Virus record (IMG/VR): IMGVR_UViG_2791355164_000001 | Span: 26,242 to 90,241 of that record | Reading direction: 5' to 3' (one strand) | Source of the DNA: a virus | Taxonomy: Duplodnaviria; Caudoviricetes | Length of the DNA stretch: 64,000 nucleotides | In this document: positions 11,788 through 59,341 of the stretch, one piece after another | How positions within the stretch are numbered: the stretch's first letter is position 1 | How the letters are laid out: every line of letters begins with the position of its first letter | The notes under the pieces: model-generated | Databases searched by the model: none | Seen by the model: only the letters and a program-made list of their open reading frames with translations | What the model was told of the DNA's origin: nothing | Made by a program: the position numbers and the translations under genes

Positions 11788-12032
11788 TGTGGATAACTGT
11801 TTAGCCTCATGAGTTATCCACTTATCCACTGAATAGATCCTAAAAATAGATCATTAGTAGATCAAAGATAGATCAAAGAAGATCACCGCCGTTATAAGGC
11901 AATGATTTTAAATATAAAAACAGCTTTTTGCGTTAGTCTATTCATGGTAAATGTTAGTCTATTCATGGTAAACGTTAGTCTATTCATGGCAAATGTTAGT
12001 CTATTCATGGTAGGTTGTTAGTCTATTCATGG
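11788..12032 (+). other. Plasmid replication origin (P1 oriR-like)
   Basis: DnaA box TGTGGATAA at 11788 and tandem TTATCCAC at 11814/11822; five AGATC repeats at 11835-11884; five iterons follow. Confidence 0.88.
11932..12032 (+). repeat. Origin iterons (incC-like), 5 x GTTAGTCTATTCATGG
   Basis: Copies start at 11932, 11953, 11974, 11995 and 12017 (21-22 bp period). Confidence 0.92.
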
Positions 12033-12076
12033 TAGCGAACCATATTACTCACATTTCACAGTGGCAGAATGATATC

Positions 12077-12958
12077 ATGCAAAAAGATAATGAAATCATA
12101 ACTATATCTGATGCTCTATGTGTTGAAGGTGGCGATAATGGGGAAAGTTATACTCTTACGCCAACGGATAACAAAACAGTTCAGCCTATTGCTCTCATGC
12201 GCTTAGGGATTTTCGTTCCTGGTTCCAAAAGGTTGCCTTCGCGTGGGTATGTGTCTGTCGATGCTACTCAAGAATTGGGCACTTTAGAGCTTGCCAAATC
12301 AGAGGGTTATACGGATATTTCTATCCGTGGAAGCCGTCTCGATATGAGCACGGATTTTAAAACATGGATCGGCGTTATTCGTGCGTTCTCAAAGCATGGC
12401 AAAAGTAGCAACCGAATTACCCTGCCTTTCACCGAATTTGCCAAGTTAACCGGCATAGCTGTTGACGATATAAATCAGCGTTCGAGAGACAGATTCTTTG
12501 ATTCTCTGGTGCGCCTGTCCTCTTTAGTGGTTTCTTTCAAAAATAAAGACGGAAGTAAGGTTACGATCACACACCTGCTTCAATACGCTACCTATGACAT
12601 AAAGAGTGACACCATTAGTTTGGAAGGTGACTCGCGCCTATGGGAGCTTTATAGCTATGATCACAAGGTTTTGTTGCAGCTTAAAGCTATTCAGGCATTA
12701 CCTCGAAAAGAGTCAGCACAAGCGTTATATGTCTACATCGAAAGCATGCCAAACAGTGCATTACAGCTGTCGTTACCGAGGCTACGTGAACGTCTCAATC
12801 TAAGATCCAGCCTTAGTGCGCAGAACCTTGCAGTACGAAATGCTATGAAAGAGCTGGAGAAGATTGGGTATTTGACATACAGCGAAGTGAAAAAAAACGG
12901 GACGGTATTTTTCCTGATTCACTCACGCAAACCAGGCTTAAGACCTCAATTGAATTGA
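12077..12958 (+). CDS. repA: Plasmid replication initiator RepA (P1/RepFIB-like)
   Basis: TVQPIALMRLGIFVP, RLDMSTDFKTWIG, LPRKESAQALY motifs; flanked by iterons. Confidence 0.92.
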   Translation: MQKDNEIITISDALCVEGGDNGESYTLTPTDNKTVQPIALMRLGIFVPGSKRLPSRGYVSVDATQELGTLELAKSEGYTDISIRGSRLDMSTDFKTWIGVIRAFSKHGKSSNRITLPFTEFAKLTGIAVDDINQRSRDRFFDSLVRLSSLVVSFKNKDGSKVTITHLLQYATYDIKSDTISLEGDSRLWELYSYDHKVLLQLKAIQALPRKESAQALYVYIESMPNSALQLSLPRLRERLNLRSSLSAQNLAVRNAMKELEKIGYLTYSEVKKNGTVFFLIHSRKPGLRPQLN

Positions 12959-12960
12959 GT

Positions 12961-13843
12961 GTTAGTCTGTTCATGGCAACTGCGGTGTAGCTCACTGCAA
13001 CGTTAGTCTATTCATGGTAATGAGTGTTATTTACTCACAATGTATAAACAACCGGCGGTTTAGACTAACGCCACCATGAATAGACTAATAGCTGGTTCAA
13101 AAATAGCCGCTTTACCATGCACAGACTAACAAATTTACCACTTCTAAGCCCTGAGCCTTCCAGTGGTACCGGTAGTAATCACGAAAACATTAGTCTATTC
13201 ATGGTAAAAGCTGGCTAACACATACATATCGTTAGTCTATTCATGGAGAAATCGGCACTAATTCCTGAAATTGAGTGCTTTGTATACTGATTGTCATGGT
13301 TTGCCATGAACAGACTAACAGTTGCCATGAACAGACTAACGCTGCCATGAATAGACTAACGATGTTTGCAAGCATGGTAGCCACCAGCTATCTGACGGAA
13401 AATGTATATAAACATGCCGAGCGTGTTTGCAAACATGATGGACGCTGATCATGCACGGTACATCGCCCCGGTGTAGGTCGGCTTTCACTCACGCCAGCAT
13501 GTTTATAAACACTTTTCAGCCTGGCACTCGATCCCATCATGTTTATAAACACTGTTAGTCTATTCATGGCAACGGCTGACGCCTGCCATGAAACCAGCAA
13601 CACGGCAGCGATTGGCCGTTTAGGTGTGAGGGCAATTTCTACACTTCCCACAATCGGCCCTGCCGCTGGTGGCTGTCATGTTTGCAAACATCGTTAGTCT
13701 ATTCATGGTGAAGGTTGCTGGTTTCGTGGTAGAGGGGCGCGCAGCCACCAAATATGTTCGCAATATGTACAGGTTGAGCCTGTTTACCATGAATAGACGA
13801 ACATTTGCCTGCTAACTGAGTGGGCTACCATGAATAGACTAAC
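12961..13843. repeat. Copy-control iterons (incA-like), about 13 copies in both orientations
   Basis: GTTAGTCT(A/G)TTCATGG or its reverse complement near 12961, 13002, 13074, 13115, 13190, 13231, 13304, 13325, 13345, 13554, 13693, 13787 and 13827. Confidence 0.88.
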
Positions 13844-15196: not shown

Positions 15197-15212
15197 CTGT
15201 ATTTTTATACAG
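15197..15212. promoter_or_regulatory. LexA (SOS) box
   Basis: CTGTATTTTTATACAG (CTGT-N8-ACAG) just upstream of umuD. Confidence 0.9.
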
Positions 15213-15228
15213 GCAAAAGGAGGTGGAT

Positions 15229-15672
15229 ATGATGCGATTAGAACTGATAGCCAAACCGGCACACACCGCGCCACGACAGGCGTATTTACAGTTTCTGGAG
15301 AAGGTGGCAGCAGGTTTTCCGTCGCCGGCAATAGGCTACGAAGATACGCCGCTAGATCTGAATGAGTACTGCGTGCGGGCTAAAACGGCGACCTATTTTG
15401 TCCGCTGCCAGGGTGAGTCGATGATTGATGCCGGTATTTTTGACGGCGATCTGCTGGTGGTGGACAAGTCGCGCACGGCAGCAGACGGACAGATTGTGAT
15501 TGCCTCAGTGGACGGAGAATTTACGGTAAAAAAGCTGCAGCTGAAGCCGGAGCCGATGCTGCTGGCGATGAACCCGCGCTATAAGCCGATCCCGGTTGAG
15601 CCGGAGTCACTGGAAATATGGGGCGTGGTCACTTACGTGATCCACAGTACTGACAATGTTTCTTCACAGTGA
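15229..15672 (+). CDS. umuD: SOS mutagenesis protein UmuD family (S24 peptidase)
   Basis: VAAGFPSPA cleavage site, GESM, GDLLVVD, EFTVKKL. Confidence 0.95.
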   Translation: MMRLELIAKPAHTAPRQAYLQFLEKVAAGFPSPAIGYEDTPLDLNEYCVRAKTATYFVRCQGESMIDAGIFDGDLLVVDKSRTAADGQIVIASVDGEFTVKKLQLKPEPMLLAMNPRYKPIPVEPESLEIWGVVTYVIHSTDNVSSQ

Positions 15673-16921
15673 CGTTAACGCGTTCTACGTGTCCGCCGAG
15701 CTGGCATTCAGACCGGACCTGTACGGGCGCCCGGTGGTTGTGGCGACGAACAATGACGGGTGCATAGCCGCGCTGAACAAAGAGGCAAAAAACGCCGGAC
15801 TGAAGCGGGGTGATCCGCTGTTTAAAATCCGCGACACAATCCGGCGCTATGGCGTGGTGGTATTCAGTAGCAACTACACGCTGTACGACGCATTCAGTAA
15901 GCGCTTCCATTCCATTGTGGGTGAGCATGTTCCTAACCTGGAAGCATACTCAATCGACGAGGTATTTGGCTCTCTGGATGGCATGTCAAAGCTGGTGGAC
16001 TATCAGGCGTTTGGAGAGGAGATCCGCCGGACCGTCACCCAGCACACCACGATGAAGTGTGGCGTGGGGATAGCGGAAACCAAGACGCTCTGTAAGGTTG
16101 CCACGCACGCAGCAAAGACCTGGCCGAAAACAGGCGGCGTGGTAGTGCTGACCGACCCGGCGCGGCGTGACAAGCTGCTGTCGCTGCTGGACGTGTCCGA
16201 AACGTGGGGAGTAGGGAGCCGGATAGCCGCCAGGCTGCGCATGATGAACATCAAGACGATGCTCGACCTTGCCCGCGCTGACACAACCACGATCCGCAAA
16301 ACGTTTAATGTGATGCTGGAGCGCACGGTAAGAGAGCTGCGCGGCGAACGCTGCTTTGAGCTCGAGGAGAACCCGCCCACGAAACAGCAAATCGTGGTGA
16401 GCCGGTCCTTTGGCAAGCGCCTAACCAGCCTGGACGAAGTGAGCAACGCTGTTTGTTTCTTTGCCACCAGCGCCGGCGAAAAGCTGCGGCGTGAAAAGCA
16501 GTACTGCCGGAATATCACGGTATTCATCCAGACCAGTAAACACGATCCGAACTACCCGTATTACTCGCGCGGCGCCAGCCATTCGTTTACCACGGCCACA
16601 CAGGACACACGCGATCTGATTGATGCCGCCGTTCGCGGCCTGCGGGCTATCTGGCGCGATGGCTACCAGTATGCAAAGGCAGGCGTGATGCTGGGAGAGT
16701 TCTGCGGCTCTGAGCAGCAGCTTAACCTGTTTGATGAAGCGCCGCCGCGCCCTGGCAGCGATAAGCTGATGGCTGTTATGGACAAACTGAACAGCTACCA
16801 GCGTGGCACGCTTTTTCTGGCAGGTCAGGGCGTGAATCCGGCCTACCAGATGAAGCGGGAAATGCTCTCACCGCGCTATCTCACGCGATGGGAAGAGTTA
16901 CCGGTAGTAAAAATAAAATAG
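15656..16921 (+). CDS. umuC: Y-family DNA polymerase V subunit UmuC
   Basis: DVNAFYVS, NNDGC, YSIDE, SRSFG, MKREMLSPRYLTRW. Confidence 0.95.
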   Translation: MFLHSDVNAFYVSAELAFRPDLYGRPVVVATNNDGCIAALNKEAKNAGLKRGDPLFKIRDTIRRYGVVVFSSNYTLYDAFSKRFHSIVGEHVPNLEAYSIDEVFGSLDGMSKLVDYQAFGEEIRRTVTQHTTMKCGVGIAETKTLCKVATHAAKTWPKTGGVVVLTDPARRDKLLSLLDVSETWGVGSRIAARLRMMNIKTMLDLARADTTTIRKTFNVMLERTVRELRGERCFELEENPPTKQQIVVSRSFGKRLTSLDEVSNAVCFFATSAGEKLRREKQYCRNITVFIQTSKHDPNYPYYSRGASHSFTTATQDTRDLIDAAVRGLRAIWRDGYQYAKAGVMLGEFCGSEQQLNLFDEAPPRPGSDKLMAVMDKLNSYQRGTLFLAGQGVNPAYQMKREMLSPRYLTRWEELPVVKIK

Positions 16922-17108
16922 GGTGATTTAAACCCTGGAATTACAATAATTTAGGTTAAAAATAATCAGCCACTATGTTACCCCGTATTTATTCATTGCA
17001 GCAGCCGATCAAATGTTGATCACCCTTTAGGATGTGCATACAATCAGAAAAAACTGAAAGTGCATATTTTATTAGCGCACTCAATTAACAACCGGGATTT
17101 ATAGGGAT

Positions 17109-17246
17109 ATGGCTGATATTTTATACATGGCAATGATGCTTTTCTTCGCTGTTTTTTCGCTTGTCGGTTTGTTTATTTCGCTCCGTTTGCCTGCAATGTT
17201 GCGTGCTTTTGATGCTGAAATGATCAAAAGCAAGCTTTCTCACTGA
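17109..17246 (+). CDS. 45-aa membrane peptide (not in ORF track)
   Basis: MADILYMAMMLFFAVFSLVGLFISLRLPAMLRAFDAEMIKSKLSH with AGGGA RBS. Confidence 0.4.
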   Translation: MADILYMAMMLFFAVFSLVGLFISLRLPAMLRAFDAEMIKSKLSH

Positions 17247-17392
17247 CTCCATCCTGCGAAACTCACCAGCCAGCCGCCATCATGCGGCGCTGGTGGGACT
17301 TGTGCAAAGCACCCCATTGGTTAATGAAAAATTTAAACTTTCCTTAGAATATTATATCATTTAGTCCGAAATTAACCATTGGACTAAATGAT

Positions 17393-17578
17393 ATGACCAG
17401 TGCCACTAAACCCCCTGTTTTGTCACAGCCGGCGCTTATCGGCGCGATCCTGTCCGAAATTGGCAATCAGCAACCGGGTGCCACCATCAGCGCCGCACAG
17501 TTCAAAGCGATCGCTAAAGCCGCTAACAAAGTTATTGACGCTTTCAAACCTCAAGTGAACGAACAGGCTGATGAATAA
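17393..17578 (+). CDS. Hypothetical phage protein
   Basis: First gene after operator-like site at 17338-17350. Confidence 0.5.
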   Translation: MTSATKPPVLSQPALIGAILSEIGNQQPGATISAAQFKAIAKAANKVIDAFKPQVNEQADE

Positions 17579-17624
17579 TGATCATAGCGCTGGTGTCCGA
17601 TTTAAGCGCATGGAGGGTATGTAG

Positions 17625-17891
17625 ATGCCGGTAAGCAGAGCACAGCTATTTACTCTGCGCAGAATGCGCAACGGAACCCGCTACATGATGCGGGGCGACA
17701 AGGGCTATGGCATTGAAGTTCGCTATGACGTTGCGACCGGGAACCGTGATGATGTTAATTGCCGCAGTCTCGCACCGCTGATGCGCAGCGGGCTTATCCG
17801 CTTCAAGACCAAACCCACAGACATGACACGCTACTACGAAGTGGAGCTAACTCCACAGGGTATTACAGCAGCGAAAGGGAATATTCAATGA
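17625..17891 (+). CDS. Hypothetical phage protein
   Basis: GGAGG RBS; coupled to next ORF. Confidence 0.55.
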   Translation: MPVSRAQLFTLRRMRNGTRYMMRGDKGYGIEVRYDVATGNRDDVNCRSLAPLMRSGLIRFKTKPTDMTRYYEVELTPQGITAAKGNIQ

Positions 17892-18214
17892 GCCAGGGAG
17901 TAAAACATTATCCGATGCCGGTTGTGCCGGCTGAGCTGGTGGAGCCGCTGATCCGCTTTCTGTCCGACCGTGAGGAGCGTATTGAGTTTCCACCTCATAT
18001 GTTTTCAATGCTTAAAACTCTGGGGGAGGAGATCGCGCTGGCCGCACTGACTGCAAAGCCACTGGCAGCTACTGAAAAACATGAAATAAGCAACATGCAT
18101 GCGACAGGGCTTTACCTTAGAGCATGGCCTCTATGCAGACGCCTCAACCAGCAGGAGGGCTATAACGTAAACCTGTATACCGCTCCACCAGCGCTAGTGA
18201 GTAACGGGCAATGA
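17888..18214 (+). CDS. Hypothetical phage protein
   Basis: ATGA overlap with upstream gene; LYTAPP C-terminal motif common in phage proteins. Confidence 0.55.
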   Translation: MSQGVKHYPMPVVPAELVEPLIRFLSDREERIEFPPHMFSMLKTLGEEIALAALTAKPLAATEKHEISNMHATGLYLRAWPLCRRLNQQEGYNVNLYTAPPALVSNGQ

Positions 18215-18340
18215 ACCTGCGTAAATTCTTCCGCCTGAAAGCGCCCTGCGCGAATTGCCCGTTTTAAAAAGCCGGTGGTATAGAGCTGAATCATGGGCGT
18301 AAAATGAAGATGAACCATTTACACGCATGTGCTACATAGT
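18211..18340 (+). pseudogene. Truncated Cys-containing phage gene at the colicin cassette junction
   Basis: MNLRKFFRLKAPCANCPF*KAGGIEL...; in-frame stop at 18265, then AT-rich insert. Confidence 0.35.
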
Positions 18341-18403
18341 CTGCAGGTGTTTGTTGTAAATGGTATTTAATGGAAAAAATAAAGCTGAGAAAAAGGAGTG
18401 TTG

Positions 18404-18934
18404 ATGGAAAGTTTTAAAGACATGCATTCTTCTAAAGGTGAAGAGAAAAAGATTATCCTTTCTTTGATTCTGGCACTGATGCCGCTCATGGTTTTTTTAC
18501 TGTGCCAGCTGCTTAATAATGACTCACTATTATTGCATTTTATCTATGACAAAACAGCAAACTTACCGGCTGTCATTTCTTCAAAAAGCATCCTGCTAAG
18601 TAAGTCGATGGATGTTTATTGTAAAACTGCGCCATTTTTGGCGGTGATTGTATTTGTTTTATTTTTAAATCCAAGAAGTTTGATTCGCAAGGTAGATCCA
18701 AAGCAACTGGTGAAAGGATTTATTTCCTGCTGTATTCTCCTGTCTTGTGCATTTTACTTTTTTATGTTCTCCAGTTTTGATTTGTATCAGTCAAAAAGGT
18801 TTTTAAGGCTTTTTTCTTACAATGATTATTCACTGACCATTTTTTATGTCAGCCTGTATGCGATTTTCTATATGTTTACACTGGCTCTTTTGTTCTTTGT
18901 AGTAAGGATTGCTGAAATGATAAAGGAGAGGTAA
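18404..18934 (+). CDS. Pore-forming colicin immunity protein (colicin A/B/N-type)
   Basis: About 4 TM segments, SKSMDVYCKTAPF motif, convergent with toxin gene. Confidence 0.85.
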   Translation: MESFKDMHSSKGEEKKIILSLILALMPLMVFLLCQLLNNDSLLLHFIYDKTANLPAVISSKSILLSKSMDVYCKTAPFLAVIVFVLFLNPRSLIRKVDPKQLVKGFISCCILLSCAFYFFMFSSFDLYQSKRFLRLFSYNDYSLTIFYVSLYAIFYMFTLALLFFVVRIAEMIKER

Positions 18935-18959
18935 ATATCACCTCTCCTTTTATTTTTAC

Positions 18960-20309
18960 TTATTGCGCCCGAGAGATAAGGTAGCTGTTGAAAGCAGCAG
19001 TTGCCTTATCGTCAATAAGTGAACTCAGGTAGGCAATCAGCATTAGACCGGCAACTGTCAGTACAGTTGCCGTCACAGGAAGAGAAAGGGTAAAAGTGGC
19101 AACGATGGCCGAAAATAAACTTAGCGCAACACTGCCAGCTATACCGGCCAGCACCCAGGATTCCACTTCAAGCATTAATGGTCCCCAGTTGCCGGTTCGA
19201 TAACCCTCCATGCTCTTTTCAGCCACTTTCTGCACTTTTTGAGCCAAGTCGCCAACCTTGAATGCTTTTGCAAGACGACCCATTTTTTTTGCCATATCTG
19301 CAGCGTTGACATGCTGCCAAGCATTCGCCAGAACCTGCGTATCTGCTGCATTAAATCGCATTGCCGGGTTAGCTCTGAGCTGATTAAGTGCATTCATAGC
19401 CTGAGCATATCCGCGTATGTTCTTGCCCTGAAAATTACGCACATTGGAGGCAATGCTAGCCGCTACCTGTTTGTACTTATCTCCGGCATAACTACTCACC
19501 TTTTCACCAACATCAGTGATAAGACCTGCAGCGCTGTTGATCGCTTCAGTGGTTTGTGCGGCTTTGTTTTGTGTAATTGCTTTATCCAGATCTGCCAAAA
19601 CCTCACCGCGCACTTTGTTCAGTTTGTACCTGACTGGATTGTTTACCTGTACAGTATGGCTGTTGCCGTTCCTGCCGCCGCTATCACGAGTCTCTGTAAC
19701 TTTTTCTGGCTGAACGTTGTATGCAGTCTGCCATGCCTCGGCAATTTGCGTGCGTGCAGCAGGCTGCTCACTGAAAGCCAAAGCATCAAAAGAGGCACGG
19801 AGTTGTTTGTAAGAATTAATTTGAGTTGAGGGGGTAACCTTTTGGTTAGGCATTTCGTAATCAGGCACATTTTTGAGAGTGTCTGCAATGGCTGTATTGA
19901 TCAATGCTTCATCTAATCGGCCTTTACTGGACCAGCTTCCACCTGCCAGATAATTTTCAACAACCGTCTGCGCTAATGGTTTACCTCCTGCCGCTTGGTT
20001 AGGAGCAGGGGTACGACGGGCAAGTTCATTTAGGACGCGCGTATAATGAAAGCCGTCGCCTGGAACTTTAACCATTGAAGAGTTTGTTGCGGTCATTCTT
20101 ATGCCATTCATCATGGCATAACCATCAGTGATAGTGATACGGCCCCACGGGGTCATATAGGATGTGCCGGCTTTAACTGATGTTATTTTATCTCCAATAC
20201 TGACACCGCCGTTTACACCGTCACCAGCATTGCTGTGCGTTTCTCCGTGGCCGGGTAACGGGCCGCGCTCAGAACTCCATGGTGTACCATCACCGTATTT
20301 GTTGCTCAT
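18960..20309 (-). CDS. Pore-forming colicin-like bacteriocin
   Basis: C-terminal pore domain (NFQGKNIR, EGYRTGNWGPLMLEVESW, hydrophobic hairpin); N-terminal DGTPWSSE TolB-box-like motif. Confidence 0.9.
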   Translation of the reverse strand: MSNKYGDGTPWSSERGPLPGHGETHSNAGDGVNGGVSIGDKITSVKAGTSYMTPWGRITITDGYAMMNGIRMTATNSSMVKVPGDGFHYTRVLNELARRTPAPNQAAGGKPLAQTVVENYLAGGSWSSKGRLDEALINTAIADTLKNVPDYEMPNQKVTPSTQINSYKQLRASFDALAFSEQPAARTQIAEAWQTAYNVQPEKVTETRDSGGRNGNSHTVQVNNPVRYKLNKVRGEVLADLDKAITQNKAAQTTEAINSAAGLITDVGEKVSSYAGDKYKQVAASIASNVRNFQGKNIRGYAQAMNALNQLRANPAMRFNAADTQVLANAWQHVNAADMAKKMGRLAKAFKVGDLAQKVQKVAEKSMEGYRTGNWGPLMLEVESWVLAGIAGSVALSLFSAIVATFTLSLPVTATVLTVAGLMLIAYLSSLIDDKATAAFNSYLISRAQ

Positions 20310-20770
20310 TAAAACCCCTTTCTAAAATAAATTAAAAAATCCTAACGAGTGCAAATTTATATTATCACTCCGTTTTAATTAAGTACAAATGGTTAAACGG
20401 ACTTTTACCACTATTCTTAATAATTCGATGATTTATAAAATTTATCTTCTATACCAGTTTCCACTGGTTATTAAATTTTATTGGATGCTAATGTTCCTAT
20501 ATGAGCTTTTTTGTATTGTTGGTGTGTTTTTTGGTTGTTATTGGAAATAACGGTTAACTTATTTTTATATTGCTATATAACCAACGGTTGTGGCTGGTTA
20601 GGCAAAGAGTTGCCTGCCTTTGATTTTTAGCTGGCAAAGATCACTACAAGCATTGCTAAGCAGCGGCTGCTGTCAGGCCAGCCGCACGGGTTTTCATGCG
20701 AGCGCGATGTTCAATGGGGGGAAGCCTGTTCTTATTTTTTTAGGGTTGCAATGCTATTTGGTTCTGATGA

Positions 20771-21322
20771 TCAGGCGCTGCGGCGGCGTTCTATCAGCAT
20801 ATGCGCCATAGATTCCACTTCCTCAAAATCCCTTGAGGCTGCGGTTCTCAGTATCAGATTCCATTTGCTGAGTGTGCGCGCATTTTTAGCCAGATCACTT
20901 CCTGCTTTCACACGTCCGCTTTCTTCCAGCCAGGCGGCTACTTCTGACCAGTCCCAAAGGGGAGACTGACCCTTTATGCGCTGGACAGGGCAGGGGAAAT
21001 TGCCGTTGCCGCGCGTGCCGTCTTTGAGCATGGCGATTGCCTGGCGTGACATTTCGGTGTTCTCTGCAATGTCGCTCAGTCCCACCAGCGCCGAATCGAC
21101 AGACGCCACTACAGCGCCGATTCCGGCTGATTCAACGTTTTCAACCGCTGACATAATGGCTTCATGCAGGGATTCTGCTTCGCGGTCAAACTCCAGATAA
21201 ACGGCGTGGCCATATGCGCAAATCAGCGCATCATCACAGCCGCTTTCAAACAGCGCATCTTCCAGTCCTTCGGTCTCATACGTTACGCCTGAGAGTGTCA
21301 GAGTGAAGTTATAAAGCGCCAT
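20771..21322 (-). CDS. HicB-like/HTH DNA-binding protein (putative antitoxin)
   Basis: FDREAESLHEAI N-domain, LVGLSDIAE...SRQAI HTH, PLWDWSEV. Confidence 0.6.
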   Translation of the reverse strand: MALYNFTLTLSGVTYETEGLEDALFESGCDDALICAYGHAVYLEFDREAESLHEAIMSAVENVESAGIGAVVASVDSALVGLSDIAENTEMSRQAIAMLKDGTRGNGNFPCPVQRIKGQSPLWDWSEVAAWLEESGRVKAGSDLAKNARTLSKWNLILRTAASRDFEEVESMAHMLIERRRSA

Positions 21323-21392
21323 AGTACCTCTTCTTTTTCGTGGGTGTGTAACTCGGTAAAGAGCGGCGTTAACCACTCTTTACCGGGCAAAA

Positions 21393-21617
21393 TCATGTGC
21401 AGTGATCGACCTTGCGCCTGATTTGCTTCGCGTGGTTCTCCGGGCTTCGCGGAGTAGACCACACACTCATTTGATGATCTCGGTGTTCATCTTCTGGATT
21501 ACCGCAGCGCAGCTTGCAAAAGCAGTGAGCTGAATCGCCCGGTGGAACCCAAACCCAGCCTTTCGTTAACGCATAATCAATGGCTGCTTGAATATGCTTG
21601 TTCGGATGTTTCTTCAT
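21393..21617 (-). CDS. HicA-like small protein (putative toxin)
   Basis: GW...SAH...SVWSTP pattern; upstream of HicB-like gene. Confidence 0.55.
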   Translation of the reverse strand: MKKHPNKHIQAAIDYALTKGWVWVPPGDSAHCFCKLRCGNPEDEHRDHQMSVWSTPRSPENHAKQIRRKVDHCT

Positions 21618-24078: not shown

Positions 24079-25155
24079 ATGACACAACAGCTCAAATCTA
24101 TTCAGGCGCTGCGCGGGCTTGCCTGCCTTGCCGTCGTAACTTTTCATTTTCGCTATCAGATCAAAACGCAATATCCGGCGTTAACCAAAGTGCTTTCAAC
24201 CGGCGCTATTGGCGTGGATCTGTTTTTCATCCTCAGTGGCTTTGTTATTACGCTCTCCGTGTCGCGCATGGGTACAGGGTTCGCGGCAGCGGGTGACTTC
24301 CTGAAACGCCGTGCGCTGCGCCTGCTGCCCGCCTATTTCATTCTGCTGCTGATCAACTTCCTGTTAAGCGGGGCTATGGCGACGTTCCACTATGCGGATA
24401 AGACTCAGGCGCTGATTAGTGCGGCAACGCTCTCCGTCTACCTGCCGCAGCACGCGCCGTTTTACGTGGACGACGGCGGGTTTATGAACGTGCGCTGGAC
24501 GCTCAACTATGAGTTTCTGTTTTACCTGATGATGGCCGTATGCCTGCTGGTGCGCGCACGCTGGGTGGCGCTGGCCGCAATGCTGGGCGCGGCGCTGGTG
24601 GCGGCACCAATGGCAGCAGGCCACCAGCCGACGCTGCTGGTGCATGGCTACGATATGGGTTACGCCTACCTGAACCTGATGACCAATCCGATTATCTGGC
24701 AGTTTGCCGCGGGCGTGCTGATTGGCCTGGTTTACCCGTACATGGCGCGCCTGCCGGTGGCAACCCGTGTGCCGTTCCTGCTGGCAGCGGTTGCCCTGTT
24801 TGTGCAGCACATTATCAGCCACCAGCATATCGGGCATGGTCTGATGGCGTCTGGTACCGTGCTGGCGCTGCTGCTGGCCGCTGTGGCGTTCAATGACAGC
24901 TGGTTAGGACGCATCACGCCGCGCTGGCTGGTATTCCTGGGGGATATCTCTTTCTCCGTATACCTGATCCATATCGTGACCAAAGATCGGTTATCAAAAT
25001 CCTTCACGGATCAGGGTATGACGTTCTTCGTGTGCAACGTCCTGCTGGCACTGCTGGTGGGCTGGCTCAGCTACCGCTACATTGAGCCAATTGGCCAGAA
25101 GATAGCGCGCCGGCGCAGAGAGAAAGCGCTCCGTACCGTAAGCGATGCCGCATAA
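24079..25155 (+). CDS. Acyltransferase-3 (OafA-like) membrane acyltransferase
   Basis: IQALRGLA, GVDLFFILSGFV, RRALRL, WTLNYE, LGDISFSVYLIH, YRYIE. Confidence 0.9.
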   Translation: MTQQLKSIQALRGLACLAVVTFHFRYQIKTQYPALTKVLSTGAIGVDLFFILSGFVITLSVSRMGTGFAAAGDFLKRRALRLLPAYFILLLINFLLSGAMATFHYADKTQALISAATLSVYLPQHAPFYVDDGGFMNVRWTLNYEFLFYLMMAVCLLVRARWVALAAMLGAALVAAPMAAGHQPTLLVHGYDMGYAYLNLMTNPIIWQFAAGVLIGLVYPYMARLPVATRVPFLLAAVALFVQHIISHQHIGHGLMASGTVLALLLAAVAFNDSWLGRITPRWLVFLGDISFSVYLIHIVTKDRLSKSFTDQGMTFFVCNVLLALLVGWLSYRYIEPIGQKIARRRREKALRTVSDAA

Positions 25156-34441: not shown

Positions 34442-35751
34442 TCTGCGCCATCCTTGTCTTTCATAACGGATAGCGCATCGGTCATAACGGATTCATCGTC
34501 GGACATAACGGATATCTCCGGCGGGATATCGTCGTCGTACAGGTCAGCAGTAGCCGCATAGTCAAAATTGCCGCTCAGATTGGCCTCGCCTGCGGTTTCG
34601 CCGGCGCGCAGCTCTCCGTCTGCCTGGACGTCACCAAACCCGCCTTTGTCCACCAGCGCGGCAACTTCAGCGCGACGTGTCTCAACAAAGGCAGCGGACG
34701 CGGCCTGCTGCCGGCGATACTCCTGCGCCTCCAGTTCCAGCTCCGCCTCGCTGACCTGGCCGCTTTCATCTACCGGCGGTTCAGCGTTCTTAAGCTCGTT
34801 TTCGAGACGTCTGGACAGAGACTCAGGCAGTTTGATGCCGTGGCGCTCGATGTACTCTGCCGTCTGCAGCAGATCCCAGTCCTCCGCCTCTCGCAGCTGG
34901 TATGCGCGGCTGATAACCTCGCCGGCGTTATGCGTCAGCGCATGCTTCTCATTGTCGCGCCGGTTCTTATCGGTACTGCCGGCGATTGCCGCTACCCGGG
35001 TAGCGTGGTCATTGACCAGATAGCCGACCTCGATCATCAGCTTGGTCATTTTCAGGATAGGGTGTGGTCCGCCGCCGTCGTCCTCCTCCCCCTTCTTTTT
35101 GCCGCTGGCCATGTTGTCGGCCTCAAGCTCAAACAGCTCTACCGCACGCGCCGTGGTGCGCTTGAGCATGTCCATGTGCGCCAGAGAGTCAAACAGCGCC
35201 GTCATGGCGCTGGCTTCCAGCCCCTCGCCCAGCACCTCTAACGCCGCTTCATAATCCTGTGGCCGCGGGTAGGCACGCCGGTTGGCGACCAGCTTAGTTT
35301 CATGGCCTTCCTCAAAGGGTTTACCCTCGCCGCGGGGCTTTGCGGTGTGCTTCGGGCGCCCGTCACTTTGATCACCGTCATTTATGATCTTTTTGGCATG
35401 TGAAGCATTGGGCTTTTTCTTCCCGCCAGGCTGCGGCGCTGCGTCAGCGCGTGGTTCCAGCACCCCCTCTAAAGCCGCGCTGTGCCTGAGTTTGCGCCCG
35501 TTCCGGCGTATGGTGAGGTCGTCTTTTCTGGTGTGATCATTTTGATGATCAGAAGCGTGATCACCCGAATGATCATGATTGTGATCACCACTTTGATCAC
35601 CCATCGCGGCCAGCGCTTTACCGTTCAGCTCCCGACGGGCCGTGTTGAATGGCAGGTCATAGTACTCGCAGTACTCTTTGACGGTTATTCCGCTCTCGGC
35701 CTTCTGCTCAATGAAAGCCCTTCTGTGTTCATCCCAGTTAACTTTGGACAT
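34438..35751 (-). CDS. pacA: Terminase small/DNA-recognition subunit PacA
   Basis: N-terminal HTH (FNTARREL), coupled to pacB, contains TGATCA array. Confidence 0.85.
   Translation of the reverse strand: MSKVNWDEHRRAFIEQKAESGITVKEYCEYYDLPFNTARRELNGKALAAMGDQSGDHNHDHSGDHASDHQNDHTRKDDLTIRRNGRKLRHSAALEGVLEPRADAAPQPGGKKKPNASHAKKIINDGDQSDGRPKHTAKPRGEGKPFEEGHETKLVANRRAYPRPQDYEAALEVLGEGLEASAMTALFDSLAHMDMLKRTTARAVELFELEADNMASGKKKGEEDDGGGPHPILKMTKLMIEVGYLVNDHATRVAAIAGSTDKNRRDNEKHALTHNAGEVISRAYQLREAEDWDLLQTAEYIERHGIKLPESLSRRLENELKNAEPPVDESGQVSEAELELEAQEYRRQQAASAAFVETRRAEVAALVDKGGFGDVQADGELRAGETAGEANLSGNFDYAATADLYDDDIPPEISVMSDDESVMTDALSVMKDKDGAE
35534..35599. repeat. pac site hexamers, 6 x TGATCA at exact 12-bp period
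   Basis: Starts at 35534, 35546, 35558, 35570, 35582 and 35594; further copies at 35369, 35810 and 35822. Confidence 0.8.
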
Positions 35752-35957: not shown

Positions 35958-37085
35958 ATGACTAAGAACAAAGCAGTTTTAGTAGCAGTGGATGCAGGCT
36001 CCGGTAACATTGCTCTGTCGTTCCTTGACGAAGCAACCGGCAAGATTAAAACCTCTGTGACCCCGGCGCTTGTGCATGAAGGCCACCAGCAGACGCTCGC
36101 TACTGAGTCACAATCTTCATGGCATACAACAGATGCGCAGGGTAAAGAGCGCACGTACACCGTCATGAATGCAGGCTATGACCTGTATGACACCTGTGAC
36201 CCTGATTACCAGGTTTCCGCTGCTCACCGCGTTCTGGTTAATGATGCGCTGGTTCGTGCTGGTCTCGGTGGCCGTGACATTATCCTCGGTGAAACGCTCC
36301 CGGTAAGTCAGTTCTACAGCGCTGCAGGCAACATCAATGAAGCGCGCATCAAACAGAAAGCTGACAGTCTGAAAACGCGTGTTGAGAACATTAATGACAG
36401 CATCAAAGCTGCAAACATCATTCACGTAGAAATCTATCCAGAGGCTGTCCCTGCCATTCTTACCGCGCAGGCTGATCTGCCAGAGCTGGCAGACGCAGAA
36501 AAGACGCTGGTAATTGATTTAGGCCGCTTCACCTGTGATATCGCCCTGGTTGACTCTGACCTGATGCCGATCCGCAGAAGTGGCTTTGAGCACGGCGTGC
36601 AGACGATGATTAAGCGTGTTCACACCCTGCTGATCGAGTTTGAAAAGACGCTGGATAAGTCGTTTAACGCCTCAGACCTGAGCTTGGACAGCGTTGATGC
36701 AATCATCCGTCAGGGCTATATCGGTTCCCGCCTGGAGAGAGCGAAAGATAAGCGCATCAATGTTCTGCCTGTTATCGATCAGGCCGCAGCTGAACTCGCT
36801 GAAACCATCATGAAAGATGTTCGTGCGCTGCACCGTAATACCCACGACATTGACGTTGTGCTGGTTGTGGGCGGCGGTGCTAACTATATCGCCGGTAAAC
36901 TGCCTGGCCTGACAGATCACACCGCTGACTGGCATGATGTGGTGGTTGTGCCAGATAACCCAGAAATGGCTATCGTGCGCGGCGTTCATATGGCGCTGAC
37001 GGCTGCAGAAGAAGAAATCCGCGACGAAATCAGCGAAGCCGCCACCGTGAGTGATATTCGCAGCAGGACTGGCGATAAGGCGTAA
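35958..37085 (+). CDS. ParM/StbA-family actin-like ATPase
   Basis: VDAGSGN, YPEAVPA, IDLGRFTCD, VGGGA actin-fold motifs. Confidence 0.85.
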   Translation: MTKNKAVLVAVDAGSGNIALSFLDEATGKIKTSVTPALVHEGHQQTLATESQSSWHTTDAQGKERTYTVMNAGYDLYDTCDPDYQVSAAHRVLVNDALVRAGLGGRDIILGETLPVSQFYSAAGNINEARIKQKADSLKTRVENINDSIKAANIIHVEIYPEAVPAILTAQADLPELADAEKTLVIDLGRFTCDIALVDSDLMPIRRSGFEHGVQTMIKRVHTLLIEFEKTLDKSFNASDLSLDSVDAIIRQGYIGSRLERAKDKRINVLPVIDQAAAELAETIMKDVRALHRNTHDIDVVLVVGGGANYIAGKLPGLTDHTADWHDVVVVPDNPEMAIVRGVHMALTAAEEEIRDEISEAATVSDIRSRTGDKA

Positions 37086-56053: not shown

Positions 56054-56255
56054 AGATACGCCCGGAATGATCCGGACGTGGTAGCGCCGAAGGCACTATG
56101 TGCCAGCTCTCATGCTTTTTCAGGGTTCCAATCCCGACCGCTGTTTTGCAGCGGCGCGCACACTATATCCGCCGCACTGATAAATTCAATATGTCTAATG
56201 TGAAATTATCCACTGGTCATTAGATCCACGCATGGATCAAGAAAAGTTACCTACG

Positions 56256-57689: not shown

Positions 57690-58573
57690 AGATAGTAGCT
57701 AAAAACGCCGATCACGGCAACTCTTTTCCCTTGCATTGCTTAGATAATAAGCAAAATCCTGTACGAATTACCGGGTATGATTTTACCCACGTTATTGAGC
57801 TTTCACCTCTTCCAAAATCCCTCACTCGCGTACTGAAATTCGCGTGTAATTTGGCGTGCTCTACGTCCAGATTTGAGATCATCAAATCCCTCAGCACTTT
57901 GGCAGAGGAAGCAGGCGTGAGCATTTCTACCGTTCAGCGCGCTTATCGCCTGGCGGTTAAACTCGGCATCCTTACTCATGAGGAGCAGCGCTGCAAAAAC
58001 AACCACAAGTGGAGTAAGCCCAGCAAGTACACGTTCACCAGCAAAGCGCTGGCTTTTGTACAGGCGAGTCTGGCTGAACTGAAAGCGGCTAATCTTCAGC
58101 CTGCGGGGCGTCAGAGCCTCGTCCGGAGAATCGTTGCTGACACCTTCTCAAAATTAAATTTCACCCTCGCTACCCCTGGTCAGAATGAACAGGCTACCCC
58201 TGGTCAAAATGACCAACAAGAAGTAAGAGATCTCTCCAGAACAAGAGAAACACAATACAGTGAGTCAGCAATTTCGGAATCGAAAGAGATTGCGTCAGAG
58301 CCATCAGCGCCAGAGAAAAAATTCGGGATTTATCAGGAGTCACTGCAAAGCCTGGCAGCAGGATCAGCAGCAGCAGACAAAGAGCGCCGCGCAGAGGCAT
58401 ACCAGCGCAACGGCCAGTTGATGCACAAGGTCTACGGCTATATTAAATCCACGTTTAAGCCCAAAGCAGCTGCGGGCCGGAAACCAGAAAGCCGCCGCCA
58501 GACGGGTGATTTCGCTGGCGACGGTCTGAAGCATGATAACTACGCGATCCCGGAAGGGTTCAGAGGCGCTTAA
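57686..58573 (+). CDS. HTH replication-initiator-like protein (candidate lytic replicon)
   Basis: SLSTLAEEAGVSISTVQRA HTH; internal 24-bp tandem repeat next to AT-rich stretch. Confidence 0.55.
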   Translation: MKIVAKNADHGNSFPLHCLDNKQNPVRITGYDFTHVIELSPLPKSLTRVLKFACNLACSTSRFEIIKSLSTLAEEAGVSISTVQRAYRLAVKLGILTHEEQRCKNNHKWSKPSKYTFTSKALAFVQASLAELKAANLQPAGRQSLVRRIVADTFSKLNFTLATPGQNEQATPGQNDQQEVRDLSRTRETQYSESAISESKEIASEPSAPEKKFGIYQESLQSLAAGSAAADKERRAEAYQRNGQLMHKVYGYIKSTFKPKAAAGRKPESRRQTGDFAGDGLKHDNYAIPEGFRGA

Positions 58574-59061
58574 TCGGTAACTGTGCCACCAGCATCACGA
58601 TAGGCAGTCAGCAGCGTTTCGATAGCGTGCGTTTTCTGACCATATGGCGAGCCGGTGAGCGACGCCCAGATATCGTTAGTTTTGCCAATGGCCGTGCGGA
58701 TTCGTCCGGCGTGGACGTCGGCATACGCGCCCTGCTCTTTCAGCAGCTGGTCAAGCAAGCGCTCCTGTGACGCGGGGCTGAAGTCGGGCAGTTTCAGCTG
58801 TTTTTTGTAGACCGGCCAGTAGCGGTAAAGCTGCTGATATCGGCCTGCTGCAGTCGAGGCCAGACCATGCTTATTGAGCACTTTAGCGCGGCGGTTTGAG
58901 AACGGGTGATCGGTGAAGTCGGTAAAGATTTCGCCCAGCTTGTCGCCCAGCCCGGTCACGATAACGTCATAGCCACGCATGCGGGTTAACGGGTGAGTAC
59001 TGGTGCCTTCTGAGAACGCCAGCATGTCGCCAAAGGCTTTACGGTTTGCGGATTGCTCCAT
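58570..59061 (-). CDS. lyz: Endolysin (lambda R-type lysozyme)
   Basis: AFSEGT, GYDVIV, STAAGRYQ, DFSPASQ, IWASL.G. Confidence 0.9.
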   Translation of the reverse strand: MEQSANRKAFGDMLAFSEGTSTHPLTRMRGYDVIVTGLGDKLGEIFTDFTDHPFSNRRAKVLNKHGLASTAAGRYQQLYRYWPVYKKQLKLPDFSPASQERLLDQLLKEQGAYADVHAGRIRTAIGKTNDIWASLTGSPYGQKTHAIETLLTAYRDAGGTVTD

Positions 59062-59093
59062 TGTGATACCACTCTGTAATGATTGAGAGCGGG

Positions 59094-59115
59094 ACTGTAT
59101 GGAGTTTGTAATTTG
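59094..59115 (-). promoter_or_regulatory. Putative late promoter for lyz
   Basis: CAAATTACA-N7-TACAGT. Confidence 0.7.
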
Positions 59116-59341
59116 TAGTGGGAAGAAAGGCCGCATGGTGCGGCCATTGTGTGTTAGCTCATAGCGGGCATTAAGCACCCACAGTCCGCTCTGTGACAGA
59201 AGCGGTTTTTACTACCATTTCTTAATAAGGGAATTCTAAAGAAAAAACGACTAAAACGGAGGGTTTAATTAAATTCTGATATTTCCATTCGTGCATTTGA
59301 ACGATAAAGTCAATGTAAATTTTTCTCTGAATGGGGTGAAG

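Follow-up and report, generated by a model that had tools for sequence, protein, structure and literature searches.

How would a colicin-like toxin leave the cell that makes it, if its gene has neither a lysis gene beside it nor an SOS box in front of it? This question is raised by a toxin-immunity cassette in a stretch of 64,000 nucleotides of a tailed virus (Duplodnaviria; Caudoviricetes), i.e., bases 26242-90241 of the 90,241-bp IMG/VR record IMGVR_UViG_2791355164_000001; we refer to this whole stretch as the window and give all positions within it. The cassette encodes a predicted colicin A-like pore-former and its putative immunity protein, and is carried by a P1/D6-like phage-plasmid. 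In our judgment, the chances are about even that the element carries it as cargo in the form of a functional bacteriocin cassette, whose toxin is released by the phage lysis of the element itself.

The two genes of the cassette and the parts of their products are arranged as follows:

18960-20309, minus strand: colicin A-like pore-forming bacteriocin gene, an open reading frame (ORF) of 449 amino acids (aa; 48.0 kDa)
19914-20309, minus strand: predicted translocation domain, residues 1-132, delimited by BLASTP and by sequence matches to the Protein Data Bank (PDB)
19566-19913, minus strand: middle module, residues 133-248, belonging to no family; compact and helical with one beta-hairpin in the AlphaFold2 model
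18963-19565, minus strand: A-type pore-forming domain, residues 249-449, from a PDB match and model superposition
18404-18934, plus strand: immunity gene, 176 aa from the ATG at 18404, in an ORF that opens at a GTG at 18398
18922-18950: perfect 11-bp stem hairpin (inverted repeat I25) between the convergent stop codons

The toxin is about 50% identical to colicin A across 73% of its length. It matches the Pfam families PF01024 at residues 253-424 (38.3 bits, cut-off 23.4) and ColA_N (PF22348) at residues 52-81, whereas no model in NCBIfam or PHROGs matches either the toxin or the immunity protein. BLASTP aligned residues 6-132 with residues 10-144 of colicin A (44% identity, E = 1e-19), and the next alignment was found only at the pore domain. 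The TolB box DGTPWSSERG occupies residues 7-16 (20262-20291); residues 5-98 match colicin A as crystallized with TolB (3iax_B, 1.2e-14) and residues 46-99 match colicin A in its TolA complex (3qdr_B, 1.4e-7). These matches indicate that the N-terminus is a group A, Tol-type translocation domain, predicted to bind TolB and TolA. At the other end of the protein, residues 249-446 match the colicin A pore domain (1col, 1.1e-66) with 54% identity, and include a hydrophobic helical hairpin at approximately residues 384-434. An AlphaFold2 model of the whole toxin was built from a 44-row alignment and has a mean predicted local distance difference test score (pLDDT) of 76: residues 1-42 are disordered, the TolA-binding part forms a small beta region, and the pore domain superposes on 1col_A with a template modelling (TM) score of 0.93 and a root-mean-square deviation of 1.7 A.

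The immunity gene has an AGGAG motif 6 nt before the ATG at 18404, which is the likely start. Its product matches the Colicin_im family (PF03857, 1.1e-26), has four hydrophobic stretches, and is 34% identical over 175 residues to Cai, the immunity protein of colicin A. The two genes are convergent, with 25 nt between their stop codons, and the hairpin at 18922-18950 is likely a two-way terminator. The immunity protein thus appears to be the cognate A-type partner of the toxin; no phage record matched in a search with it. By its pore domain, its immunity partner and its Tol-type N-terminus, the toxin is best described as a predicted A-type pore-forming colicin. The original prediction, made from the sequence alone, had named a TolB-box-like motif, an A-type pore domain and a convergent immunity gene with four transmembrane segments, and each of these was borne out by the family, structural and hydrophobicity evidence above.

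The toxin sequence is present in public protein collections, where it has no curated name, and four Klebsiella phage records match it at 34-40% identity, mostly over the pore domain. At the DNA level, a near-identity search of plasmid and phage collections with the cassette returned no match, and a search in distant mode returned only about 300 bp of pore-domain similarity. An Escherichia coli protein of 436 aa (P0019) was considered as a P1-borne relative and rejected, as its plasmid relatives are small colicin K-like plasmids.

The original prediction had also called the central region of the toxin unfamiliar, and this proved apt: residues 133-250 have no similarity to colicin A by BLASTP and match no Pfam family. 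Structure prediction, which had been named as a way to check this region, gave a confident and compact module without a solved look-alike. In the whole-toxin model, a helical module with one beta-hairpin spans approximately residues 112-225 (pLDDT 82-95) and a long helix joins it to the pore domain; modelled separately, residues 91-250 reached a pLDDT of 80.8. A Foldseek search of the PDB with the module gave no matches at E ≤ 1e-3, which does not prove a new fold. Comparison with 48,161 chains in a VIA wide search gave a best Z of 7.5, which is in the noise range for helical models, and an Atlas search gave no usable match by features and only TM scores below 0.5 by structure.

Relatives of the module were found at the sequence level. 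A HMMER search with residues 1-250 against 1.84 billion representatives yielded 25 matches at E ≤ 1e-3, 14 of which span most of the module; the named carriers belong to Pantoea, Erwinia, Erwiniaceae and Serratia. Pfam was run on 13 of the 25 matches and placed a colicin pore domain in eight, Pyocin_S with a DNase in one (P0103) and Pyocin_S with ColA_N in another (P0115). The pore domains joined to the module in these Pfam-checked matches differ in sequence type. The module is thus a rare, shuffled bacteriocin module that lacks a family name. It takes the position of the receptor-binding coiled coil of colicin A and presumably binds an outer-membrane receptor.

The limits of the cassette were set from the break in synteny and the change in GC content. 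The features at and around its edges are:

18293-20680: toxin-immunity cassette, about 2.4 kb
20310-20680, minus strand: AT-rich region upstream of the toxin, 32% GC
18211-18292, plus strand: remnant of a backbone gene (118 aa in plasmid pPSP-26e), with a TAA at codon 19 (18265-18267) and homology ending at about 18292
20681-20770, minus strand: decayed small gene following the hicB-like gene, cut at about 20680, with start codon and frame lost
20771-21376, minus strand (that of the toxin): hicB-like gene for a DNA-binding protein, 201 aa; excisionase/transcriptional regulator in PHROGs
21393-21617, minus strand, same strand as the toxin and upstream of the cassette: hicA-like gene, 74 aa

Homology to the Pantoea plasmids pPSP-26e and pMMD61212-C_C ends at about 18290 and resumes at about 20681-20805. 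The GC content of the cassette is 41.8%, compared to 53.8% for the element and about 0.53 for the flanks. The AT-rich cassette and the broken phage gene beside it had both been noted beforehand; the premature stop codon and the truncation at the cassette edge confirm the latter, and there is a second remnant on the other side. This second, right-hand gene is whole (45 aa) in relatives, including the two contigs L028 and L029 described below.

The cassette site lies between umuDC and the hicAB-like pair, a stretch whose homolog is annotated as HicA/HicB in Escherichia phage Cyrano. The hicB-like neighbour led to 20 related IMG/VR loci, and neither the toxin nor the immunity gene occurs in any of them. 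The closest of these (L008, with flanks 96-97% identical) carries two unrelated ORFs of 253 and 256 aa at the same junction (L008:6806-8490). Just two of 40 colicin-bearing loci, the metagenome contigs L028 and L029, have this backbone, and each carries the cassette at that site. In both, the cassette abuts the end of umuC directly and stops right after the immunity gene; the small window ORFs at 17393-17578, 17625-17891 and 17759-18214, in the stretch 16922-18214 between umuC and the cassette, are absent from them and match no Pfam or PHROGs family. The umuC/hicB junction is a cargo hotspot, because an 87% identical allele sits at the same site in L028 and L029, none is present in the 20 related viral loci, and other ORFs take its place in L008.

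The alleles in L028 and L029 were used to assess selection on the two genes. Cassette DNA is shared over 18302-20161 at 87% identity, and the region upstream of the toxin has no DNA homology. The whole toxins are 87% identical, with a ratio of nonsynonymous to synonymous substitutions (dN/dS) of 0.14. Divergence is highest in the first 100 residues (63% identity, saturated dS, dN/dS 0.08-0.10) and lowest in the pore domain (98.5% identity, dN/dS 0.02), and the immunity genes are 81% identical with a dN/dS of 0.28. For the backbone neighbour umuC, dS is 0.095 and dN/dS 0.05, compared to a dS of 0.3-0.6 in the cassette. The cassette alleles are older than the divergence of the backbone, and they are mosaic.

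With dN/dS values of 0.14 (toxin) and 0.28 (immunity gene), both are under purifying selection, which indicates working genes. The same values bear on the reading that the cassette is silent or decaying cargo, acquired horizontally and no longer expressed. Such a fate would fit foreign, AT-rich DNA that has no strong promoter and is flanked by decayed genes on both sides, but it sits badly with two intact frames preceded by good ribosome-binding sites, with purifying selection at a dS of 0.3-0.6, and with a pore domain conserved at 98.5% between alleles. We consider silent cargo most improbable.

The carrier had been predicted to be a P1-like phage-plasmid. The virus record has a 127-bp terminal repeat and a CheckV completeness of 100, and PHROGs matches among 42 large ORFs include a 2313-aa DarB-like protein, Ref, PmgS, Dmt, both terminase subunits, portal, baseplate and tail proteins, a Cre-sized integrase-family protein, ParA and an endolysin. 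Three features bear on its maintenance and on lysis:

11930-13840: plasmid replicon, with a replication gene at 12029-12958 and iterons on either side
35958-37085: ParA-like gene, from its PHROGs match
58570-59178, minus strand: phage endolysin (phrog_90, 4.1e-49)

The replication gene is flanked by five upstream iterons with an even spacing of 21-22 nt and by nine downstream in both orientations, which share the 12-mer core CCATGAATAGAC; the PHROGs label of this gene, "replication helicase", seems to be a misnomer, the product presumably being RepA. Within the terminase small-subunit gene, TGATCA hexamers recur at a spacing of 12 nt (35534-35600 and 35810), and we take this run to resemble the Dam-methylated pac site of P1. 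The portal protein is 64% identical to that of phage D6 and 50% to that of P1. At the DNA level, the element comes closest to a set of Pantoea plasmids of 87-95 kb, circular and non-mobilisable, with one record labelled Acinetobacter among them. The element is a complete P1/D6-like phage-plasmid; this agrees with the prediction in gene set, iterons, TGATCA repeats and portal and refines it, in that D6 is a nearer named phage than P1.

Two further genes of the phage-plasmid were observed. A umuD-umuC operon for translesion polymerase V lies at 15197-16921; P1 proper is not known to have more than a umuD homolog, and a second copy of umuC is present in one Pantoea relative (NZ_CP134736). At 24079-25155, a 358-aa gene resembling O-acetyltransferases and O-antigen acetylases (phrog_3333, 3.3e-82), also found in some Pantoea relatives, is likely a conversion gene that would modify the cell surface.

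The plasmid lifestyle of the carrier suggests another role for the cassette. Its main function could be to stabilise the plasmid-prophage through a population-level addiction in which toxin from sibling cells kills those that have lost the element and, with it, their immunity, complementing the partition system and the hicAB-like (toxin-antitoxin) pair. In favour of this, the element is a low-copy plasmid with ParA and iteron control, the cassette adjoins the hicAB-like pair, and toxin and immunity gene have been kept together under purifying selection. Yet the cassette is not needed for maintenance, since none of the 20 related viral loci carries it, and a stabilising role would depend on the same release step as a role in warfare, with which it is compatible. 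As the main role of the cassette, stabilisation seems to us improbable.

How the toxin would be released depends in part on what the cassette lacks. The original prediction had reported neither a lysis lipoprotein gene nor an SOS box, and both absences withstood dedicated searches. Across the complete 90,241-bp record, Lysis_col (PF02402) had no hit at E ≤ 1, and a query with the colicin A lysis protein (Cal) matched nothing in the element or in L028 and L029. No convincing ORF with a signal peptide or lipobox was present among 98 ORF variants of at least 25 aa in 18150-20850; the five that contain a lipobox-like tetrapeptide are all internal to the toxin or immunity gene and do not resemble signal peptides. 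A very hydrophobic ORF of 53 aa on the plus strand (20389-20550) was tried as a release or holin-like gene and rejected, with no relative in 61 loci and no clear ribosome-binding site. This ORF diverges from the toxin gene, and a terminator-like hairpin with a T-run stands at 20599-20616 on the same strand; it is probably a chance ORF in AT-rich DNA, and may be a small membrane protein.

For SOS control, no CTGT-N8-ACAG site with one mismatch or fewer occurs in 20310-20800. The window as a whole contains 31 such sites (19.5 expected), including three one-mismatch sites inside the toxin ORF. Its sole perfect LexA box, CTGTATTTTTATACAG at 15197-15212, stands 11 nt before umuD. When a 20-mer consensus was used instead, the toxin's best upstream site showed two core mismatches, which is also the commonest background value (121 of 184 genome tiles). 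The umuD box and the colicin A promoter served as controls and were both detected, the latter with two overlapping LexA boxes of one mismatch each. Upstream of the L028 toxin the best site has three mismatches, and L029 has a GC-rich one-mismatch site about 270 nt upstream that is off consensus at 11 of 20 positions. Because there is neither a lysis gene nor a LexA box, the locus is not a classical group A colicin operon.

The only lysis function found in the element is that of the phage itself, the endolysin at 58570-59178. We propose that the toxin accumulates in lysogens and escapes as the lysis genes of the element burst a lytic minority, because the cassette offers neither a lysis gene nor a LexA site in its promoter; toxin and virions would then be released together. 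On reaching another cell, the colicin A-like N-terminus would recruit TolB through the TolB box and TolA through the ColA_N part, the middle module would bind an outer-membrane receptor, and the pore domain would insert into the energised inner membrane from outside and form a depolarising pore. The four-helix immunity protein would block this pore and so protect every carrier cell. From the gene content, i.e., toxin and immunity on one replicon, it follows that lysogens should be immune and non-lysogens sensitive: non-carriers and cells that lose the plasmid-prophage would be killed, while carriers and new lysogens would be spared.

In interpreting the locus, the original prediction had held that phage lysis releases the toxin and that non-lysogens are killed while lysogens are immune. 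This interpretation is partly supported, in that the gene anatomy on which it was built is confirmed: an intact toxin under purifying selection, a cognate immunity gene, the lack of a lysis gene and LexA box, and an endolysin on the same replicon. Lysis of an induced minority by the phage is plausible by analogy and, in our view, the most likely exit, with chances close to even.

Several observations weigh against release through the phage. No regulatory link was found between the toxin promoter and the phage programme. The upstream region shows no strong sigma-70 promoter on the toxin strand, and no match near the toxin to a 17-mer motif of the P1 C1 operator; the one match in the 64 kb has three mismatches (515-531) and is no better than chance, and the site of this element's own repressor may differ. 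Of the 15-mers in front of the toxin gene, none is shared by several further promoters of the element: matches elsewhere are scattered and single, the longest, near 56207, looks like chance, and the pac-type TGATCA repeats are the only recurrent short inverted repeats that a search detected. The upstream region differs from those of L028 and L029, so no conserved regulatory site can be read from the comparison. Finally, the Cal query matched 10 of 41 colicin-like sequences scanned and missed the other 31, a count to be read with the caveat that some loci are incomplete and that divergent lysis proteins can escape a single query. The absence of a lysis gene is thus common among colicin-like loci and is, alone, no pointer to phage-mediated release.

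These observations lend themselves to a different account, in which lysogens produce a little toxin, constitutively or under stress, that leaves the cell independently of this phage, through slow leakage, vesicles or lysis by other prophages. The lack of a lysis gene, a LexA box and any detectable phage-type control upstream, and the 31 of 41 sequences without a Cal match, agree with it. In lysogens, transcripts starting at the hicAB-like pair could also run on into the toxin gene, which follows downstream on the same strand; no terminator-like site of that strand separates the two. Leakage without phage involvement has been described for other colicins and bacteriocins that lack lysis genes, and bacteriocin 28b of Serratia is not known to have a lysis gene or SOS control. 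Bacteriocin 28b is described as a chromosomal colicin-like protein of 47.5 kDa (PMC13101503). A 48-kDa cytoplasmic protein would nonetheless leak inefficiently, a lysis system is at hand on the same replicon, and phage lysis is the demonstrated route for colicin Ib (PMC7374059). We regard phage-independent release as possible but rather unlikely.

Returning to release by phage lysis, a bolder model can be drawn from the same data. In it, a fixed cargo site in Pantoea P1/D6-type elements would swap diverged toxin-immunity alleles by recombination; the lytic switch and lysis genes of the phage would have replaced SOS control and the lysis gene; a single transducible replicon would combine weapon, trigger, exit and antidote; and the middle module would be a new receptor-binding fold directed against an outer-membrane protein of Erwiniaceae. 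We offer this tentatively and consider it doubtful as a whole.

Among known systems, the nearest in sequence is that of colicin A (caa-cai-cal, plasmid ColA, NC_001373). The likeness covers the N-terminal 130 residues (44% identity) and the pore domain (54%, 1.7 A), and extends to Cai, which is 34% identical, of equal length, and likewise encoded convergently and immediately downstream. The two systems differ in that a 115-residue unrelated module replaces the receptor-binding coiled coil here, giving a protein of 449 instead of 592 aa. The present locus has no cal gene and no LexA boxes, compared to two boxes in the colicin A promoter, and its carrier is a 90-kb phage-plasmid rather than a 6.7-kb mobilisable plasmid.

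The N-terminus and middle module are shared with three proteins of about 450 aa and similar size from Pantoea sp. (P0006), Erwinia typographi (P0100) and Serratia odorifera (P0055), encoded on contigs of 47-228 kb. Over residues 1-250, the toxin is 39-43% identical to the Pantoea and S. odorifera proteins. The pore domains of the Erwinia and Serratia proteins are of another sequence type than the colicin A-like one here, which we read as the colicin E1 type. Given the size of bacteriocin 28b (47.5 kDa), this group may be of the bacteriocin 28b type. A second, unrelated case of phage-borne colicin cargo was also observed, at L004:5530-7228 and likewise in L005, L006, L032, L033 and L039. It consists of a 370-aa colicin-like pore-former with a glycine-rich N-terminus and a convergent immunity gene of 182 aa; it is found on viral contigs of 19 and 45 kb, adjoins genes resembling dnaC and an S24-type repressor, and has no Cal-like gene.

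Colicin Ib provides the analogy for the proposed release. It is Ton-dependent and under SOS/Fur control, whereas the toxin here has Tol-type motifs and no LexA box. Both are pore-formers without a lysis gene of their own, and phage-coupled release would be the mechanism common to both. In Salmonella, colicin Ib is released when temperate phages lyse a fraction of the cells (PMC7374059). Its gene is carried by a separate plasmid, and the phages reside in the chromosome, in contrast to toxin, immunity and lysis on one replicon here.

The closest parallel in genetic setting is with the telocins TelA-TelE of N15-like Klebsiella phage-plasmids. Their description reports toxin-immunity cassettes that are expressed in lysogens and confer a competitive advantage (PMC12042878). 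As described there, the colicin-like toxin likewise has a four-helix immunity protein of the inner membrane as its partner, and the two form an exchangeable cassette at a fixed phage-plasmid locus, a cassette that related phages lack (PMC12042878). The carriers differ, i.e., a circular, myovirus-like P1/D6-type plasmid-prophage of Pantoea compared to linear N15-type elements of Klebsiella, as do the middle module and the predicted import route. Import here would be of the colicin A/Tol type, whereas the same source gives TelA as 97% identical to KpneA and klebicin E (PMC12042878) and cites a title according to which klebicin E uses OmpC and the Ton system. The present cassette, a bacteriocin and an immunity gene carried by a phage, would work like a telocin but falls outside the authors' definition, because its carrier is not a telomere phage: the backbone is of the P1/D6 type, and no search aimed at protelomerase was made.

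In the literature on phage-plasmids and Pantoea bacteriocins, as far as the accessible texts go, no colicin-type cassette is described in a P1/D6-like phage-plasmid, and supplements may list such cargo. Likewise, a large survey of P1-like elements from clinical Enterobacteriaceae lists, in its available part, resistance genes along with Cnf3 and defence systems, and no colicin. The cassette is therefore best seen as a known type of weapon in a phage lineage where these sources do not describe it, colicin-like toxins of phage-plasmids being already known from the telocins. Nothing here overturns current understanding, and the surprises are modest: a Tol-type, colicin A-like toxin without lysis gene or SOS control, a fixed P1/D6 site with allelic variants, and an unassigned module. 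The toxin naturally combines the import module of colicin A with this middle module, which recurs with pore-forming and DNase warheads and could reveal a new receptor specificity useful for the narrow-spectrum control of Erwiniaceae. With all parts on one replicon, the element is a compact system in which to ask whether phage lysis can replace a colicin lysis gene. Set beside the telocins, it extends the arming of phage-plasmids with colicin-type toxins from the N15-like phages of Klebsiella to the P1/D6 group and to plant-associated Pantoea.

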